Shown piece after piece: positions 11,925-17,787 of a stretch of 20,000 nucleotides of DNA. Made by a program: the position numbers and the translations under genes. Positions within the stretch are counted from its first letter, which is position 1. Every line of letters begins with the position of its first letter. The DNA is from an uncultured virus (IMG/VR IMGVR_UViG_3300011434_000007) (taxonomy: Duplodnaviria > Heunggongvirae > Uroviricota > Caudoviricetes): IMG/VR virus record IMGVR_UViG_3300011434_000007; one strand, given 5' to 3'. The notes beneath the pieces were generated by a model that was given only the letters and a program-made list of their open reading frames with translations, was not told where the DNA came from and did not search any database.

Positions 11925-13169
11925 ATGGGTACAAAATGGACTACTAACGAAATTGCTTTGCTTCGTAAACATTACAGCATACGTGGTCCAAAAGGTCTAC
12001 AAGAACTCTTGCCTGGTCGCACAGCTGCAGCCATTGAAAATCAGGCCGGTTCGTTGGGTTTATATTTTGAAGCCTCTCACAAGACCAATACAATAACTGC
12101 AGCAGCAGCCCTTACCCAAGAAGAAATCGATAACGTAGCCAAGCAAAAGATTCTTAAGTTTTTAGGTGGTGGCAAGCATAAGGGTCTTATTGATGTTTGT
12201 AACCACCTTGATAAGTCTCCTGCCGCAATTCAGAAGTATCTCACTGAACTCAAAAAAGAACATTATAATATTAGTCTTAAACCCGAAGGTGTTTCGTTGG
12301 CGTCCGACCCCCTACAGGGTGGCAAACAGGTTATTGATGTTGAAAAGTACTTCGGCAGCAGTCGTGAAGTTACTTTTGGTGTCATCAGTGACATGCATTA
12401 TGGCAACGTCCATAGTCGTGAAGAGCTCATCAAGCTCCAGTATGAAATCTTTAAACGTGAAGGCGTTGAGATTGTCTTTGAATGCGGCAACATGATTGAT
12501 GGTGAGCTACATCTCAATCGTTATGAACTTGTTGCTAGTGGCATTGATGGGCAAGTTAACTATTTAGTCAATCATGCTCCGCGGGTTGACGGTGTCACCA
12601 CGTATTTCATTACGGGTGACGATCATGAAGGTTGGTTGGCCCATAACGTAGGAATCAACATTGGTGCGCATATTCAAGATTCTTTTGAGCGGGCTGGTCG
12701 CACTGATTGGAAGTATCTGGGATTTCTTGAAGCCGATGTTGAATTTAAGACCAGAGAGGGTGGCGCATGCGTTCGGTTAGCCCATCCAGGTGGCGGGACG
12801 GCCTATGCTCTCAGCTATACCCTACAGAAGATAGTTGAGTCCCTACAGGGAGGCGAAAAACCGCACGTATACCTTTCTGGTCATTACCACAAGATGGGGT
12901 ACTGGATGGTTCGTAACATTCACACCTTCTTGGTTGGTTGCATGGAAGATCAGACGACTTTCATGCGTAAGAAACACATTGAAGCTCATCTTGGCGCTTA
13001 CATTGTACGCATGACTTTGGCGCCGAACGGTACGATTTTAAAGATTCTCCCAGAGGCCTTTCCATACTTCGATAAGAAGGTTTATCAGGTCAATGGTGAT
13101 TATAATATGCCTGGCTTGGAAGTAGTCGAGGCAAAAAAGAAAAAACCAGCACCTGTTAAAACGTTCTAA
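11925..13169 (+). CDS. Calcineurin-like metallophosphoesterase with N-terminal Myb-like and winged-HTH domains
   Basis: Metal-binding motifs SDMHYG, GNMIDG, TGDDHE, HPGGG and SGHYH. The N-terminus has KWTTNEIALLRKHY..GRTAAAI, then an HTH-like segment (LDKSPAAIQKYLTELKKEHYNI). AGGGG SD. Confidence 0.85.
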   Translation: MGTKWTTNEIALLRKHYSIRGPKGLQELLPGRTAAAIENQAGSLGLYFEASHKTNTITAAAALTQEEIDNVAKQKILKFLGGGKHKGLIDVCNHLDKSPAAIQKYLTELKKEHYNISLKPEGVSLASDPLQGGKQVIDVEKYFGSSREVTFGVISDMHYGNVHSREELIKLQYEIFKREGVEIVFECGNMIDGELHLNRYELVASGIDGQVNYLVNHAPRVDGVTTYFITGDDHEGWLAHNVGINIGAHIQDSFERAGRTDWKYLGFLEADVEFKTREGGACVRLAHPGGGTAYALSYTLQKIVESLQGGEKPHVYLSGHYHKMGYWMVRNIHTFLVGCMEDQTTFMRKKHIEAHLGAYIVRMTLAPNGTILKILPEAFPYFDKKVYQVNGDYNMPGLEVVEAKKKKPAPVKTF

Positions 13170-13185: not shown

Positions 13186-14799
13186 ATGTCGCAATTTTCG
13201 GATTTGATCTTTAAGCGTACCTATGCTTTTACTGAAGACGAAACGTGGGAGCAATGCGCTAGGCGGGTATCACATTTCGTTGCCCAAGCAGCGCCACAAG
13301 AATGGGCAAAAAGCGAGCTAGAATATCTTTTCTACAAGGTAATTTCCACCAAAAAGTTCATTCCCGGTGGAAGGTACCTTTATTCAGCCGGCCGTAAGAT
13401 TCCCCAGTTAAATAACTGTTTCTTGTTGCGAGCTGAAGATAGTCGTGAAGGTTGGGGTCGTTTAGTTGATCGCCATGTTAACGGCTTGGCAACTGGTGGT
13501 GGCTGTGGCACCGAGTATTCACAGATACGTGAGAACGGTGCACCCATCAAGGGTTACGGTGGCACAGCTTCAGGTCCCATATCATTGATGGCGATGGTTA
13601 ATGAAGTCGCCAGGCATGTACTTGCAGGTGGAAAGAGACGTTCTGCTCTATGGGCAGGTCTCAATTGGCAGCATCCTGATATTGAAGCTTTTATTTCAGT
13701 TAAGAACTGGTCAACTCAGATGCGTGCCTGTAAAGAGGCAGATTTTAATTTTCCAGCGCCTCTTGACATGACGAATATTTCAGTGGGTTTAGATGACGAC
13801 TTTTTTGCGGAAGTGCATAAGAATCCCAAGGTATGGGATCTCTATTACCGCATCTGCAAATCAATGTGTAAGACTGGCGAGCCAGGGTTCTCTGTTAATT
13901 TAGGGAACAGGCGCAATGAAACGCTTCGCAATGCATGTACAGAAGTCACGAGTGAATTCGACTCAGATACATGTAACCTTGGCTCCGTCAATCTCAGTCG
14001 TATTAGTGATCTTGAAGAATTAAAAACTGTGACTGCCATTGGTGTGCAGTTTTTGTATTGTGGTACTTTTTTGAGCTGGCTGCCACATCAGGACTTTGTC
14101 AATGTTCGTAATAAGCTTCGGCGTATTGGTATTGGCTTAATGGGCGTGCATGAGTGGTGCTTGAAGAATGATTTACCCTATGCCCCTAGTGATAAGCTGG
14201 ACCGTTGGCTATTTGAATGGCGAGATGCCTCCGCTGAGCAGGCAGCAAATATGGGTCACATTTTTGGATCAGACACCATCCAGCCAATTGCTGTGCGAGC
14301 TATTGCACCTACAGGTACTATTGGCATCATTGGTGAGACAACCACTGGCATCGAACCTATTTTCTGTGTTGCCTATAAGCGTCGCTTCCTCAATGGTGCA
14401 GACGGCAAATGGAAATATTCTTACGTCGTTGATCCTACAGCTGAGCGCTTGATACAACAAGGTATCAAGCCAGATGCCATTGAAGATGCTTATGAGCTAG
14501 CCCATGACGTTGAACGCCGCCTTAAAATGCAAGCATTCGTTCAACAATACGTTGATCAGGGCATTTCTTCAACCATCAATATGCCAGCTTGGGGTGAACC
14601 TGGTAACAATAATGCCAAACATTTTGCACAGACTTTATTGAAGTATCTCCCCCAATTGAGAGGTATTACTGTTTATCCTGAAGGTGCTCGTGCGGGCCAG
14701 CCTATCACACCCATGAGTTATGAGGAAGCTATAAAACATAAGGGTGTTGTGTTTGAAGAATCTGGTGATCGCTGTATTGGTGGAACTTGCGGTGTTTGA
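13186..14799 (+). CDS. nrdJ: Ribonucleotide reductase, compact class II (adenosylcobalamin-dependent) type
   Basis: Motifs PGGRYL, NNCF, RRSA, GEPG, NACTE (thiyl-radical Cys), CNLGSVNL, IAPTGT, DQGISSTIN and a C-terminal CIGGTC redox pair. There is no ATP cone and no beta subunit nearby, so class II is inferred. Confidence 0.85.
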   Translation: MSQFSDLIFKRTYAFTEDETWEQCARRVSHFVAQAAPQEWAKSELEYLFYKVISTKKFIPGGRYLYSAGRKIPQLNNCFLLRAEDSREGWGRLVDRHVNGLATGGGCGTEYSQIRENGAPIKGYGGTASGPISLMAMVNEVARHVLAGGKRRSALWAGLNWQHPDIEAFISVKNWSTQMRACKEADFNFPAPLDMTNISVGLDDDFFAEVHKNPKVWDLYYRICKSMCKTGEPGFSVNLGNRRNETLRNACTEVTSEFDSDTCNLGSVNLSRISDLEELKTVTAIGVQFLYCGTFLSWLPHQDFVNVRNKLRRIGIGLMGVHEWCLKNDLPYAPSDKLDRWLFEWRDASAEQAANMGHIFGSDTIQPIAVRAIAPTGTIGIIGETTTGIEPIFCVAYKRRFLNGADGKWKYSYVVDPTAERLIQQGIKPDAIEDAYELAHDVERRLKMQAFVQQYVDQGISSTINMPAWGEPGNNNAKHFAQTLLKYLPQLRGITVYPEGARAGQPITPMSYEEAIKHKGVVFEESGDRCIGGTCGV

Positions 14800-14800
14800 C

Positions 14801-15055
14801 ATGAACCGTCGCGAAAAACCAAATGCCAAGCTCGGTAAGATTACACAGGTGGATGAAGGTGTTGCATTAAGGTATCACAGGCGCAAAGACGGTAGCGTGG
14901 TTATGCACACCATCTGTTGTGACTGTTGCTTAGTCCATCTTGAACAATACATTGTAAATAAAAATTATATCTCCGTTAAGGTTTGGAGAGTGGATAATGC
15001 TACCCGAAAGCTCAGAACCAAATTTAAACGTCAAGTGCTACGAGATCAATCATGA
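14801..15055 (+). CDS. Small hypothetical protein with a CCDCCLVH metal-binding motif
   Basis: The ATG lies 1 nt after the RNR TGA, giving an 84-aa basic ORF. The 14744 start in the ORF track lies inside the RNR gene and is unlikely. Confidence 0.7.
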   Translation: MNRREKPNAKLGKITQVDEGVALRYHRRKDGSVVMHTICCDCCLVHLEQYIVNKNYISVKVWRVDNATRKLRTKFKRQVLRDQS

Positions 15056-15509
15056 AGCTTTGTATCATGATTTGATGCTGTTCGCAGACTATGTTCGTTT
15101 AACGTACAAGGAGAAGCCTCGCTTATTTGGCGTACCCCGTGGAGGCTTAATAATAGCTGGCCACTTGGCACATATCCTTGACATCAAAGAAATTCTTGCC
15201 TGTCCAGTTTCACTCATGCCTTTGATGCGAAATCTTATGAAACCGACAGATCTAATTGTTGAAGATATCTATGATTCAGGTAAAACGTACCGTGAGATAC
15301 GTGAATATGTGTGGCCTGAAGTACGTGTTGTGTCCCTTTATTGTAAGCGGGATTATCCTGAAGATTGTGAGGGCCAATCTCAATTTATAAGGTCACTTGA
15401 CGTCGCACCTGATACCTTTGTATTATTTCCATGGGAGAAGATGGCTTATGAGTACTATGAAAAGTTTAAGCACAACAGGTTTGTCCAAGGTTGGTGGGCA
15501 CAAAGCTGA
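14997..15509 (+). CDS. Type I phosphoribosyltransferase (xanthine-guanine PRT-like)
   Basis: GVPRGGLI, the PRPP-binding loop LIVEDIYDSGKT, and C-terminal FVLFPWE, all typical of Gpt-like enzymes. GGAG SD at 14985. Confidence 0.85.
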   Translation: MLPESSEPNLNVKCYEINHEALYHDLMLFADYVRLTYKEKPRLFGVPRGGLIIAGHLAHILDIKEILACPVSLMPLMRNLMKPTDLIVEDIYDSGKTYREIREYVWPEVRVVSLYCKRDYPEDCEGQSQFIRSLDVAPDTFVLFPWEKMAYEYYEKFKHNRFVQGWWAQS

Positions 15510-15921
15510 TGGTGGCAAATTAGACTTTTCGCTACTACCTACTGTTTTATGGCATCTTGTTCAAGTTTATACTTTAGGCGCTATCAAGTATGGTCGAGGT
15601 AATTACAAGAAAGGAATGAAGTTTAGCAGGATCTTCGCGGCTACATGTCGTCACTTATTTCGCTGGTGGTGGTTTCGTGAAAAGTTAGATCCTATCGATG
15701 GCCAGCATCATTTAGCTTCAGCTGCCTGGGGTTGTTTAACATTGATGGAATACGAAATCATACACCCTGATAAAGATGATCGTGTTAACGGACCAGCTGA
15801 TGAACTAATAACACTGTTTCCTGAAAAGGGCATTGATTACTTGGCTATGATTGACGTTAAGGGCTGGGAAGATGACGTACCTATAAAGGTAAAGCTAAAA
15901 AGTAAGAAGAGGAAGAAGTAA
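15448..15921 (+). CDS. dATP/dGTP diphosphohydrolase-like protein (DUF5664/PF18909)
   Basis: Signature GHKADGGK..FSLLP..VYTLGAIKYGRGNYKKG..RH..LDPIDGQHHLASAAW. The start is placed at ATG 15448, after GGAGAAG. Confidence 0.85.
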   Translation: MSTMKSLSTTGLSKVGGHKADGGKLDFSLLPTVLWHLVQVYTLGAIKYGRGNYKKGMKFSRIFAATCRHLFRWWWFREKLDPIDGQHHLASAAWGCLTLMEYEIIHPDKDDRVNGPADELITLFPEKGIDYLAMIDVKGWEDDVPIKVKLKSKKRKK

Positions 15922-16247
15922 TGGAACGTAAGGAAGTTTTTGAACTGATTGATGGCGAACGCACCTACCAGGAAAGATTGTGGAACGGTTCCACAACAGT
16001 TTTGGGTAATGAACACAGGAACAAGCATTCTCTTGAGGAATGGTTCTTGTATATTGAAGATTATGTCAGTGAAGCAAAACACATTTTATCACGAATTGCT
16101 TCGCCTGACTGTGATCGTGAGGCTTCTTCAATTATGCGCAAGGTGGCAGCCTTGGCAGTTGTTGCACTTGAACAACATGGCGCAGAATCCCGAGGTCTTC
16201 CAGTGCCTGAAATAATTAAGGCCCATGGTATAGCAGAGATGAAATGA
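15921..16247 (+). CDS. MazG-like all-alpha NTP pyrophosphatase (putative)
   Basis: The pattern ERTYQERLW..HSLEEW..IEDYVSEA..RKVAALAVVALEQ resembles phage MazG-like proteins. TAATG coupling to the previous gene. Confidence 0.55.
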   Translation: MERKEVFELIDGERTYQERLWNGSTTVLGNEHRNKHSLEEWFLYIEDYVSEAKHILSRIASPDCDREASSIMRKVAALAVVALEQHGAESRGLPVPEIIKAHGIAEMK

Positions 16248-16258
16248 TGATTGATTAG

Positions 16259-16384
16259 ATGCTATTTGAATGTGAAATATTTAACTGTTTCTGGCATGAT
16301 CCCCGTTTCTGGGTAGCTTCAGGTCCAGCAATATTTGGTATGTTTTTGTTTCTAATCATGGCAGTAAAAAGGAGATTGTGGTAA
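16259..16384 (+). CDS. 41-aa single-TM peptide (not in the ORF track)
   Basis: MLFECEIFNCFWHDPRFWVASGPAIFGMFLFLIMAVKRRLW fills the gap, and its TAA overlaps the ATG of the deaminase. Confidence 0.6.
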   Translation: MLFECEIFNCFWHDPRFWVASGPAIFGMFLFLIMAVKRRLW

Positions 16385-16875
16385 TGACACGTACTAAGGA
16401 ATGGTGGGATAATTGGTTCTTACAGCTGGCGGCTTTTTACTCCACCGCTTCAAAAGATCCTAGCACGAAAGTAGGTGCTGTACTCGTTGAATCTAGAACT
16501 AATTTGGTGTTAGGTCTAGGCTACAACGGTTTTCCACGAGGTGTACAAGATACACAAGAACGTCTAGAAAATCGTGAACTCAAATATAAACTTGTTGTGC
16601 ATGCTGAGGTTAATGCCATATTAATGGCCGGTAACCGTGCCAGGGGTGGTCGCCTTTACGTTTATCCTAGTTTCATGCTCCCACCCATTTGCAATGAGTG
16701 TTGCAAGGTGGCCATTCAAGCTGGCATCTCAGAAATTGTTGGCTTCATGGTTGATGAGCAGGATGCTCGTGCCTTGCGGTGGAAAGATTCTATTTTGATT
16801 TCAAGAATGATGTGTGATGAAGCTGGCATAGCTTACCGTGGAATTCCATTACAGGAAATAGGTCATGGTGGATAA
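16384..16875 (+). CDS. dCMP deaminase
   Basis: Motifs SKDPSTKVGA, GYNGFPRG, HAEVNA and PICNEC (Zn site). AGGAG SD lies upstream of ATG 16384. Confidence 0.92.
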   Translation: MTRTKEWWDNWFLQLAAFYSTASKDPSTKVGAVLVESRTNLVLGLGYNGFPRGVQDTQERLENRELKYKLVVHAEVNAILMAGNRARGGRLYVYPSFMLPPICNECCKVAIQAGISEIVGFMVDEQDARALRWKDSILISRMMCDEAGIAYRGIPLQEIGHGG

Positions 16876-17257
16876 TCGTAATACCTTCCCTCAGTGGATT
16901 GCTGTTGATCTAGACGGAACATTGGCATATTACGATAGCAATCGAGGCCTTAGTCTTGATTATATTGGTCCACCTATTACGTCAATGCTTGTAAGAGTTC
17001 TTGGTTGGTTAAGAGAAGGAAAAACAGTCAAGATCTTCACCGCCAGAGCTGCTATGCCAGAACAAATAGCATTAATACACTCGTGGTGTAAAATTAATCT
17101 TGGCGTCGAACTAGAAGTTACTAATGCTAAAGATCCAGGTATGATAACGATGTACGATGATCGTTGTGTACTCGTCGAACATAATACAGGTAAGATCCTG
17201 GCATTCCCCAGCATTATGCACATAGACACTGACGCTTGTAAAACTACAGGTGATTGA
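16865..17257 (+). CDS. HAD-superfamily phosphatase (polynucleotide kinase 3'-phosphatase-like)
   Basis: HAD motif I (AVDLDGTLA), motif II (IFTAR), a Lys in TNAKD, and motif IV (YDDR). Confidence 0.8.
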   Translation: MVDNRNTFPQWIAVDLDGTLAYYDSNRGLSLDYIGPPITSMLVRVLGWLREGKTVKIFTARAAMPEQIALIHSWCKINLGVELEVTNAKDPGMITMYDDRCVLVEHNTGKILAFPSIMHIDTDACKTTGD

Positions 17258-17261
17258 TAGC

Positions 17262-17290
17262 TTGCTACCTTTTAGTGTAAGTTATATAAT
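17262..17290 (+). promoter_or_regulatory. Sigma70-type promoter
   Basis: TTGCTA (17262-17267), a 17-bp spacer, then TATAAT (17285-17290). AGGAGG RBS follows at 17305-17310. Confidence 0.8.
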
Positions 17291-17319: not shown

Positions 17320-17787
17320 ATGAAAAAGTACTTAAGTATTGTTTTTGCTGCTCTTTTTGTTTTCGTGTTCACAGGCTGCGGTGCTGTCTCAGCTGTAAAA
17401 CAGCAAGTCGTCGACAAAGTGGTCACCCATGTCGACGAAGATCTAACTCAAGTTAGCCAAATCGCTGCTATCGCTGACAAACAGGATGTCAAGCAGTGTT
17501 CTGATTGGTTGCAAGTTACCGTTGGTAGTTTAAAATCGAATACTGAACTCGCTGATAAGCTCGACGCTATCGACACTTCCGGTAATTTGATGGCCAGCGC
17601 CTTCAAAGATTATTTGATAGCTGAAGCCAGTAGAAACGCTGGTCAGGGTCTTATGGAAGAGGTTAAGAAAAACTTTGCCTCGAAGTGTGGCCAAGTCCAA
17701 ACTCAATTGACAATAAACTTTTTACGTAAGGCTGCCAAAGTCGGTGCTGCTAGTCGTGGTAATGTCGGTGCTCTTTTGACGCCGTAG
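17320..17787 (+). CDS. Lipoprotein (signal peptidase II signal); moron, possible superinfection-exclusion factor
   Basis: MKK, a hydrophobic core and lipobox FTG-C20, followed by a helical mature part with two further Cys. Has its own promoter and terminator. Confidence 0.8.
   Translation: MKKYLSIVFAALFVFVFTGCGAVSAVKQQVVDKVVTHVDEDLTQVSQIAAIADKQDVKQCSDWLQVTVGSLKSNTELADKLDAIDTSGNLMASAFKDYLIAEASRNAGQGLMEEVKKNFASKCGQVQTQLTINFLRKAAKVGAASRGNVGALLTP

Follow-up and report, generated by a model that had tools for sequence, protein, structure and literature searches.

A Gpt-like phosphoribosyltransferase in a phage DNA-precursor gene block as a likely accessory of a predicted 7-deazaguanine system

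What does a purine phosphoribosyltransferase (PRTase) do among the deoxynucleotide genes of an uncultured tailed phage (IMG/VR record IMGVR_UViG_3300011434_000007)? The window analysed here, a stretch of 20,000 nucleotides, is the final 20 kb of a 73,023-base contig of this phage (G000, to which coordinates prefixed C1 refer); a 103,043-base record of the same phage (G001), rated 100% complete, adds 30 kb beyond it. Eight open reading frames (ORFs) on one strand of the window, at 13186-17257, are coupled or nearly so, and their coordinates bear out the close spacing, mostly with overlaps or abutments, given in a preliminary description. That description read the block as a conserved module for substituting a purine base before replication. 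We propose instead that the block is a phage DNA-precursor operon in which the PRTase likely recycles guanine displaced from DNA by a predicted 7-deazaguanine system, the other genes serving ordinary deoxynucleoside triphosphate (dNTP) supply. We place the probability of this reading at roughly 0.4. Whether the exchange occurs in DNA or on free nucleotides, a guanine-recycling role of the PRTase is probable.

The PRTase and the genes that accompany its relatives

The PRTase (170 residues, 14997..15509, + strand) carries the motifs PRGG, EDIYDSGKT (the phosphoribosyl pyrophosphate (PRPP) loop) and FPWE. It matches PF00156 at E 2e-5, below the Pfam cut-off, and phrog_8995 at E 4e-9. We describe the sequence as Gpt-like rather than Gpt because its match to the NCBIfam xanthine PRTase model (E 7e-10) scores 38.7 bits, below the Gpt equivalog cut-off of 138. 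All 22 of its PDB sequence matches are purine, xanthine or hypoxanthine PRTases, and its best phage matches are in phiST and StAshley. In 6-oxopurine PRTases a loop aspartate is the acceptor of the N7 proton; the window PRTase keeps this residue, as do 91 of 95 viral PRTase ORFs, duplicates included.

Relatives of this PRTase travel with the genes of deazaguanine synthesis. We aligned 101 of 152 relatives and examined the best 80 of at least 150 confirmed viral loci; all locus samples in this study are best matches within a clade and not independent. Among the 80 loci, folE occurs in 56, queE in 47, queD in 32, queC in 30 and dpdL in 18, with a DpdA3-like gene in 22 and a DpdA1-like gene in 15. 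The PRTase and folE are less than 1 kb apart in 55 of the 56 loci and fused in 17; the background, taken from DUF5664 loci, is one folE in 64. At the level of whole records, 40 of the 50 longest PRTase records contain folE, and when the PRTases are clustered at 50% identity, 26 of the 44 clusters do. Viewed from the dpdA side, a PRTase lies within 8 kb at 24/80 DpdA1, 37/80 DpdA3a and 28/80 DpdA3b loci.

The PRTase profile matches phiST, CP220, immuto_2-6A, StAshley and Vibrio phage 1.207.B, and gives no match in BSP7, MA9V-3, Ahp1, Youna2, 9g, CAjan, Rosebush, phiSM, nt-1 or HVTV-1. It is thus absent from four of the nine named DpdA3-type genomes tested (five taken from a table of PMC10516641; StAshley, MA9V-3, Youna2 and this phage assigned here) and present in all three phages reported as completely G-substituted, phiST, CP220 and immuto_2-6A (PMC10516641). 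The PRTase is a frequent, optional helper of both DpdA1 and DpdA3 types.

Fusions of the PRTase with FolE are annotated only as GTP cyclohydrolase I at L096:5010-5933 and at 17 IMG/VR loci (e.g. L029:1584-2432). We found no published link of the PRTase, or of the kinase discussed below, to phage deazaguanine systems, subscription papers lying outside the search. The terms 'phosphoribosyl', 'Gpt', 'dGTP' and 'salvage' are absent from the main text of PMC10516641, and two 'phosphoribosyl' matches in its supplement concern PRA-PH.

Deazaguanine genes elsewhere in the genome

The preliminary description was right that the window holds no purZ, que, folE or dpdA gene. All but purZ lie elsewhere in the genome: the search that it proposed recovers folE, queC, queD, queE, a DpdA3-like gene, ThyX and a DNA polymerase. 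On Pfam, PHROG and NCBIfam matches, queE is at C1:1197-1955, queD at C1:9912-10367 and folE at C1:10367-11071; queC is in the 103-kb record (E 2e-57). FolE, QueD, QueE and QueC make up, as judged from these assignments, a complete pathway to 7-cyano-7-deazaguanine (preQ0). QueF was absent from the ORFs scanned (59 + 38).

A dUTPase gene, the DNA polymerase gene and an AAA_28 kinase-like gene (C1:20517-21014) are followed, with an 8-nucleotide (nt) overlap, by the gene for P0001 (C1:21007-21828), a DpdA3-like protein with the fold of tRNA-guanine transglycosylase (TGT). The polymerase (P0003, C1:17959-20517) is of family A and has an N-terminal domain resembling family 4 uracil-DNA glycosylases. 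P0001 has no Pfam, PHROG or NCBIfam match, and searching the named phages with it by tblastn found nothing. Its model from a 14-row alignment has a predicted local distance difference test score (pLDDT) of 84, against 32 from the single sequence. The top five VIA matches of this model are all TGT or DpdA (Z 16.3-15.0, with 16.3 to arcTGT and 15.9 to DpdA 7ui4), the next fold scores 13.6, and Foldseek agrees. With a profile built from six DpdA3 proteins P0001 scores E 3e-10, whereas one built from five DpdA1 proteins gives no match at E 0.01; a profile of P0001 itself matches the DpdA3 of immuto at E 3e-8 and that of phiST at 3e-4, and pairwise BLAST with phiST DpdA3 is weak (E 0.01). A score of 1e-56 from an iterated DpdA3 profile was disregarded because P0001 was among the sequences in that profile. 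Compared with the DpdA3 and DpdA1 references, P0001 is by sequence closer to DpdA3. Its invariant residues are D53, D95, Q125, HxLG and D210, which we take to correspond to the TGT catalytic positions. A PF23859 (DpdA) search matched none of 50 records, controls included, and is hence uninformative. Neither the isoelectric point (median 5.2-5.3 for DpdA3 and 5.8 for DpdA1) nor the CxCxxC zinc motif separates the two types.

These genes predict that a 7-deazaguanine replaces guanine in this phage's DNA, and the window PRTase is most likely an accessory of the genome-wide DpdA3-type system. In the proposed scheme, FolE, QueD, QueE and QueC would convert GTP to preQ0. DpdA3 would exchange preQ0 for guanine in DNA, probably at most G positions, giving deoxy-preQ0 (dPreQ0) or the deoxynucleoside of 7-amido-7-deazaguanine (dADG) and freeing one guanine per exchange. 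The PRTase would join this guanine to PRPP to form GMP, which host or phage kinases could raise to GTP and return to FolE. The ribonucleotide reductase (RNR), dCMP deaminase (with ThyX and the dUTPase elsewhere) and HAD phosphatase would supply and trim the dNTP pools, and DUF5664 and a 108-residue ORF would be generic pyrophosphatases that landed in the block. The gene set and the folE linkage are observed; from them we infer preQ0 synthesis, guanine release and recycling to GMP.

A second QueC-like PP-loop protein (P0002, 404 residues, C1:32549-33763) is encoded directly before the prohead protease. It matches QueC at E 3e-5 and the PADLOC QueC model at E 1e-5, has no PDB match, and its N-terminal part is uncharacterised. 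P0002 could modify a protein or modify the base further.

Alternative routes and the role of the PRTase

We favour recycling of guanine over loading of a modified base because the PRTase is optional, occurs with DpdA1 too, is fused to FolE, with which the pathway begins, and keeps the loop aspartate. According to PMC10516641, modification in DpdA1-type phages is partial and takes place after replication, and beside DpdA1 only recycling makes sense. Several observations weigh against the scheme as applied here. About 46 kb separate the PRTase gene from dpdA3, folE is not its neighbour either, and the protein is only ~30% identical to its folE-linked relatives, so that its tie to the deazaguanine system is, on this sequence, one of class and not of position. 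For 18 of the 44 PRTase clusters the fetched DNA contains no folE, many of these loci being short. The kept loop aspartate does not exclude unsubstituted 7-deazaguanine as a substrate. DpdA3 is not known to act on DNA, tests in E. coli having failed (PMC10516641), and an exchange at the DNA level does not explain the linkage of DpdA3 to a kinase.

This linkage is central to a different route, which we consider rather unlikely. In it, preQ0 would take the place of guanine on free dGMP through the action of DpdA3, and the modified deoxynucleoside monophosphate (dNMP) would be phosphorylated by the overlapping kinase and inserted by the phage polymerase. Hydrolysis of dGTP to dGMP by DUF5664, the 108-residue ORF or both would take away the competing nucleotide and at the same time provide DpdA3 with substrate, and the PRTase would still recycle guanine. 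It is similarly doubtful that DpdA3 is a dGMP base-exchange enzyme rather than a DNA transglycosylase, closing a pre-replicative loop that builds dG-free genomes as the guanine counterpart of the 2-aminoadenine (Z) pathway. A kinase-like gene directly flanks dpdA3 in seven of the nine named genomes (phiST, MA9V-3, BSP7, Youna2, Ahp1, CP220 and this phage) and lies inside the dpdA3 cluster in the other two (immuto and StAshley). These kinases belong to different families (AAA_18, AAA_28 and deoxynucleoside monophosphate kinase, DNMK; those of BSP7 and Youna2 were recognised by P-loop and weak matches only), Ahp1 carries a second DNMK paralogue beside dpdA3, and fusions of DpdA3 with a kinase make up an Atlas cluster of 110. 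A kinase is present at 60/80 DpdA3a loci (27/27 of those with full 8-kb flanks) versus 0/80 DpdA1 loci, and within 3.5 kb in 11 of 17 DpdA3 clusters versus none of 17 DpdA1 clusters. No kinase was found among 89 Pfam-scanned small neighbours of DpdA1 genes, out of 130 such neighbours of 20 genes; of the 41 omitted, 39 matched Que, FolE, PRTase or DpdL and two were unidentified. However, loci are related within clades, and 15 of the 17 DpdA1 clusters carry the PRTase, most having been found through it. At DpdA3b loci, moreover, no kinase lies within 8 kb (0/80, 5 with full flanks); P-loop matches near DpdA3b were rejected as kinases, being clamp loaders in the 14 of 39 inspected. Of five DpdA3 records in which no kinase adjoins dpdA3, four have a full-length AAA_28 ORF elsewhere; among DpdA3b records, full-length matches occur in 1/4 and DNMK in 0/5. 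In this clade DUF3310 (80/80 loci) and a Dut/DCD paralogue (77/80) are found beside dpdA3, which fits a nucleotide-level route but may reflect mere position in T4-like genomes. MazG/PRA-PH genes are likewise found at 32/80 DpdA3a loci, but one DpdA1 cluster (L140) also contains MazG-like and nucleoside 2-deoxyribosyltransferase-like genes. Also to be set against the route, proteins of the DpdA3 and DpdA1 types are alike acidic, and PF18909, the DUF5664 family, is in only one of 43 whole PRTase or Dpd records, that of this phage. A 2019 study of Campylobacter phages reportedly saw no dADG phosphates, which argues against the route as well. Complete substitution, the failure in E. coli and the ADG nucleoside in the cytoplasm of infected cells are consistent with it, although the same paper concludes that all such modifications are post-replicative (PMC10516641). 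A route through modified dGTP has been raised as a possibility (PMC6884629). DUF5664 yields dNMP from dATP, dUTP and dGTP, and transfer of a base on a dNMP has a precedent in DmtZ, but the one stand-alone DUF5664 tested prefers dATP tenfold (PMC12884076). The kinase linkage supports an exchange of bases on free dGMP but falls short of demonstrating it.

The remaining explanations give the PRTase other roles. Recast for this pathway, the route of the preliminary description would have the PRTase load preQ0 or a derivative onto PRPP, RNR reduce the product and the hydrolases remove dGTP. The PRTase is found in three of three fully substituted phages and none of six partly modified ones (9g, CAjan, Rosebush, phiSM, nt-1 and HVTV-1). 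In phiST the gene order is PRTase, DNMK, one further ORF and RNR, in StAshley it is RNR, DNMK, folE and PRTase, and in this phage RNR, PRTase and DUF5664 are coupled. Yet four of nine DpdA3-type genomes lack the PRTase and it is common beside the post-replicative DpdA1; the modified base therefore probably does not enter through it. Its fusion to the first enzyme of the pathway and not the last, the retained aspartate, an RNR near just 9 of 80 PRTases and the loss of any role for DpdA3 weigh against loading as well, and we regard it as improbable. We give similarly little weight to an unrelated collection of genes that would have nothing to do with DNA modification and would serve general purine salvage and pool sanitising in a salvage-poor host, or counter defences based on nucleotide depletion or alarmones. 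Every gene of the block is common in phages, its order was seen nowhere else (80 PRTase and 64 DUF5664 loci), DUF5664 also occurs in phages with canonical genomes (PMC12884076) and in this genome a long distance separates the PRTase from the que genes; but folE in 56/80 PRTase loci versus 1/64 in the background, and a whole preQ0 pathway in this genome, are not expected of such a collection. A Z-genome pathway without PurZ is suggested by the occurrence of DUF5664 in Z phages (PMC12884076). We rejected it and assign it a negligible probability: the 103-kb record has no match to PF00709 (PurZ), for which the control matched 14/14 genomes, and the polymerase scores 73 bits against a DpoZ cut-off of 500 and 31 against one of 350. 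The analogy drawn in the preliminary description therefore fails. What stands of its proposal is a contact between the block and a system of purine base substitution, as the preQ0 pathway, the DpdA3-like enzyme and PRTases that track the pathway suggest.

For the complete replacement of guanine in DpdA3 phages the post-replicative label has been inferred (PMC10516641), and the gene linkages point to two overlooked parts, the PRTase and the kinase. If guanine is exchanged in DNA and recycled, the small viral PRTase, often hidden in 'GTP cyclohydrolase' annotations, would both mark phage deazaguanine systems and assist them. If the exchange takes place on nucleotides, DpdA3 would be an example of the TGT fold working on a free nucleotide, and it might offer an enzymatic way to make 7-deaza-dGTP.

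Other loci offer related observations. At L140:6622-7406, the MazG-like gene and the deoxyribosyltransferase-like gene, which has a DmtZ-type fold, lie between queD and folE. T4-like DpdA3 phages carry an extra Dut/DCD paralogue or dNMP kinase beside dpdA3, besides the usual copy (L317:9145-9642 and 15438-15944; L099:4876-5442). In CP220, an HD-domain and P-loop gene directly upstream of dpdA3 (L113:2862-3893) is a candidate nucleotide phosphohydrolase. One DpdA1 cluster has, between folE and queF, a gene for a GNAT acetyltransferase (L044:11864-12355) that might acetylate preQ1.

The rest of the block and comparison with known systems

All genes of the block are on the + strand. The RNR gene (537 residues, 13186..14799) matches PF02867 at E 1e-53 and the class II insertion domain PF21995. 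It probably encodes a B12-dependent class II, NrdJ-like large chain acting without a small subunit, because the best NCBIfam model is NrdJ_Z (242 bits, below that model's cut-off) and the 103-kb record contains no small-subunit gene. An 84-residue ORF with a Cys/His cluster (14801..15055) follows after a 1-nt gap, has no Pfam, PHROG or PADLOC match, and is overlapped by the PRTase gene by 59 nt. As the preliminary description stated, the 3' end of the PRTase gene overlaps the DUF5664 gene (157 residues, 15448..15921); the overlap is 62 nt, and GGGAG precedes the DUF5664 start. The product is a stand-alone DUF5664 and predicted dNTP diphosphohydrolase, matching PF18909 at E 2e-21 (76 bits against a cut-off of 27) with conserved columns retained. 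Coupled to it by TAATG is the 108-residue all-alpha ORF (15921..16247). Of the two all-alpha pyrophosphatases announced earlier, DUF5664 is firm and the MazG-like label of the 108-residue ORF is a weak ESM Atlas lead: its nearest named clusters there are MazG/PRA-PH (score 0.91-0.86, TM 0.49-0.55), 29% of the members of the cluster matched at 0.91 bearing the MazG label, and it has no Pfam, PHROG, NCBIfam or PDB-sequence match. Local DUF3310 and MazG profiles matched neither DUF5664 nor this ORF.

A 41-residue hydrophobic ORF, read from sequence and translation as a small membrane protein (16259..16384), is coupled by TAATG to the start of the dCMP deaminase gene (163 residues, 16384..16875; PF00383 E 5e-14, phrog_174 E 3e-30, HAE and PxCxxC motifs). 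The deaminase likely feeds the ThyX of the genome (C1:11706-12452). The HAD-family phosphatase gene (130 residues, 16865..17257) overlaps it by 11 nt and was called on phrog_1238 and phrog_415 (E ~1e-5) and a DLDGT motif read from the sequence. The earlier assignments of RNR and dCMP deaminase are firm at the Pfam level, as is PF18909, and that of the HAD phosphatase is supported by its PHROG matches and motif. Apart from the PRTase, the block probably encodes ordinary enzymes of dNTP supply. The PADLOC search recovered no defence system, only the deaminase domain and a weak QueC.

The block may begin further upstream. A 414-residue ORF with weak matches to helix-turn-helix and metallophosphoesterase families (11925..13169, + strand) sits between the GH108 endolysin and RNR genes, ends 16 nt upstream of RNR and is possibly the first gene of the transcript. 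Just past the HAD gene, a sigma70-like promoter, TTGCTA-17-TATAAT (17262..17290, + strand), is a possible boundary. Twenty such sites were found versus 14.4 +/- 3.7 in shuffled sequences, which is not significant alone, and promoter and terminator counts were near chance. Behind its own sigma70-like promoter lies a lipoprotein-like ORF with a signal peptide and FTGC (17320-17787). Between head and tail genes, eleven consecutive sugar-related genes (G000:C1:38483-50627; L003:2483-14624) encode GT2 and other glycosyltransferases, methyltransferases, epimerases, a UDP-sugar dehydrogenase and a UDP-GlcNAc 2-epimerase, possibly for virion glycosylation.

The claim that PRTase, DUF5664 and MazG genes form a conserved syntenic module was not borne out and is rejected from both sides. 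Most partners were searched for with phmmer from single sequences at E 1e-3, which can overlook distant homologues; on this basis we found no match to the window's DUF5664, 108-residue ORF, dCMP deaminase or HAD in the 80 viral PRTase loci, and no PRTase, 108-residue homologue, HAD or DpdA in the 64 other DUF5664 loci, where RNR occurs in 6, dCMP deaminase in 4 and folE in 1. We therefore regard the block as a local assembly. At L378:4613-8300, DUF5664 has queE, folE and a queD-like match as neighbours, and the 16-kb locus gave no match to DpdA1 or DpdA3.

Among known enzymes, the window PRTase shares with Gpt (PDB 1a95-1a98, 6kp5) and the purine PRTase 1vdm the RGG loop, the acidic PRPP loop with its 6-oxopurine aspartate and the C-terminal PW motif. 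In contrast, it scores below the curated cut-offs, its flexible-loop region is shortened, and its viral relatives are tied and often fused to folE. Its stand-alone DUF5664 neighbour recalls the Z-genome enzymes (PurZ, DatZ, MazZ/DUF550, DUF5664, DutZ and DmtZ; PMC12884076), whose logic of draining a dNTP to feed a base swap on a dNMP fits the nucleotide-level route; this phage differs in having neither PurZ nor a DpoZ-level polymerase score, and its modified base would be a guanine analogue. Common to this phage and the DpdA1 systems (9g, CAjan and Rosebush) are preQ0 genes and a transglycosylase, and some DpdA1 phages, such as Vibrio phage 1.207.B, have a PRTase-FolE fusion. However, their modification is partial, they have no kinase nearby (0/80), and P0001 does not match the DpdA1 profile. 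With the DpdA3 systems of phiST, CP220 and immuto_2-6A, the phage shares FolE, QueD, QueE, a DpdA3-like TGT-fold protein, a kinase adjoining dpdA3 or in its cluster (immuto) and a Gpt-like PRTase (PMC10516641). It differs in its divergent P0001, which is 17% identical to the reference row of the DpdA3 alignment and has CG in place of NS after the first aspartate, and in its scattered genes, the PRTase being coupled to RNR and DUF5664, a coupling that the others lack. Substitution has been reported in those three phages, whereas here it is predicted from genes. The FolE/QueD/QueE/QueC/DpdA3 set of CP220, as given in supplement DS1 of PMC10516641, equals that of this phage, and the modified base in its DNA is therefore predicted to be dPreQ0 or dADG.

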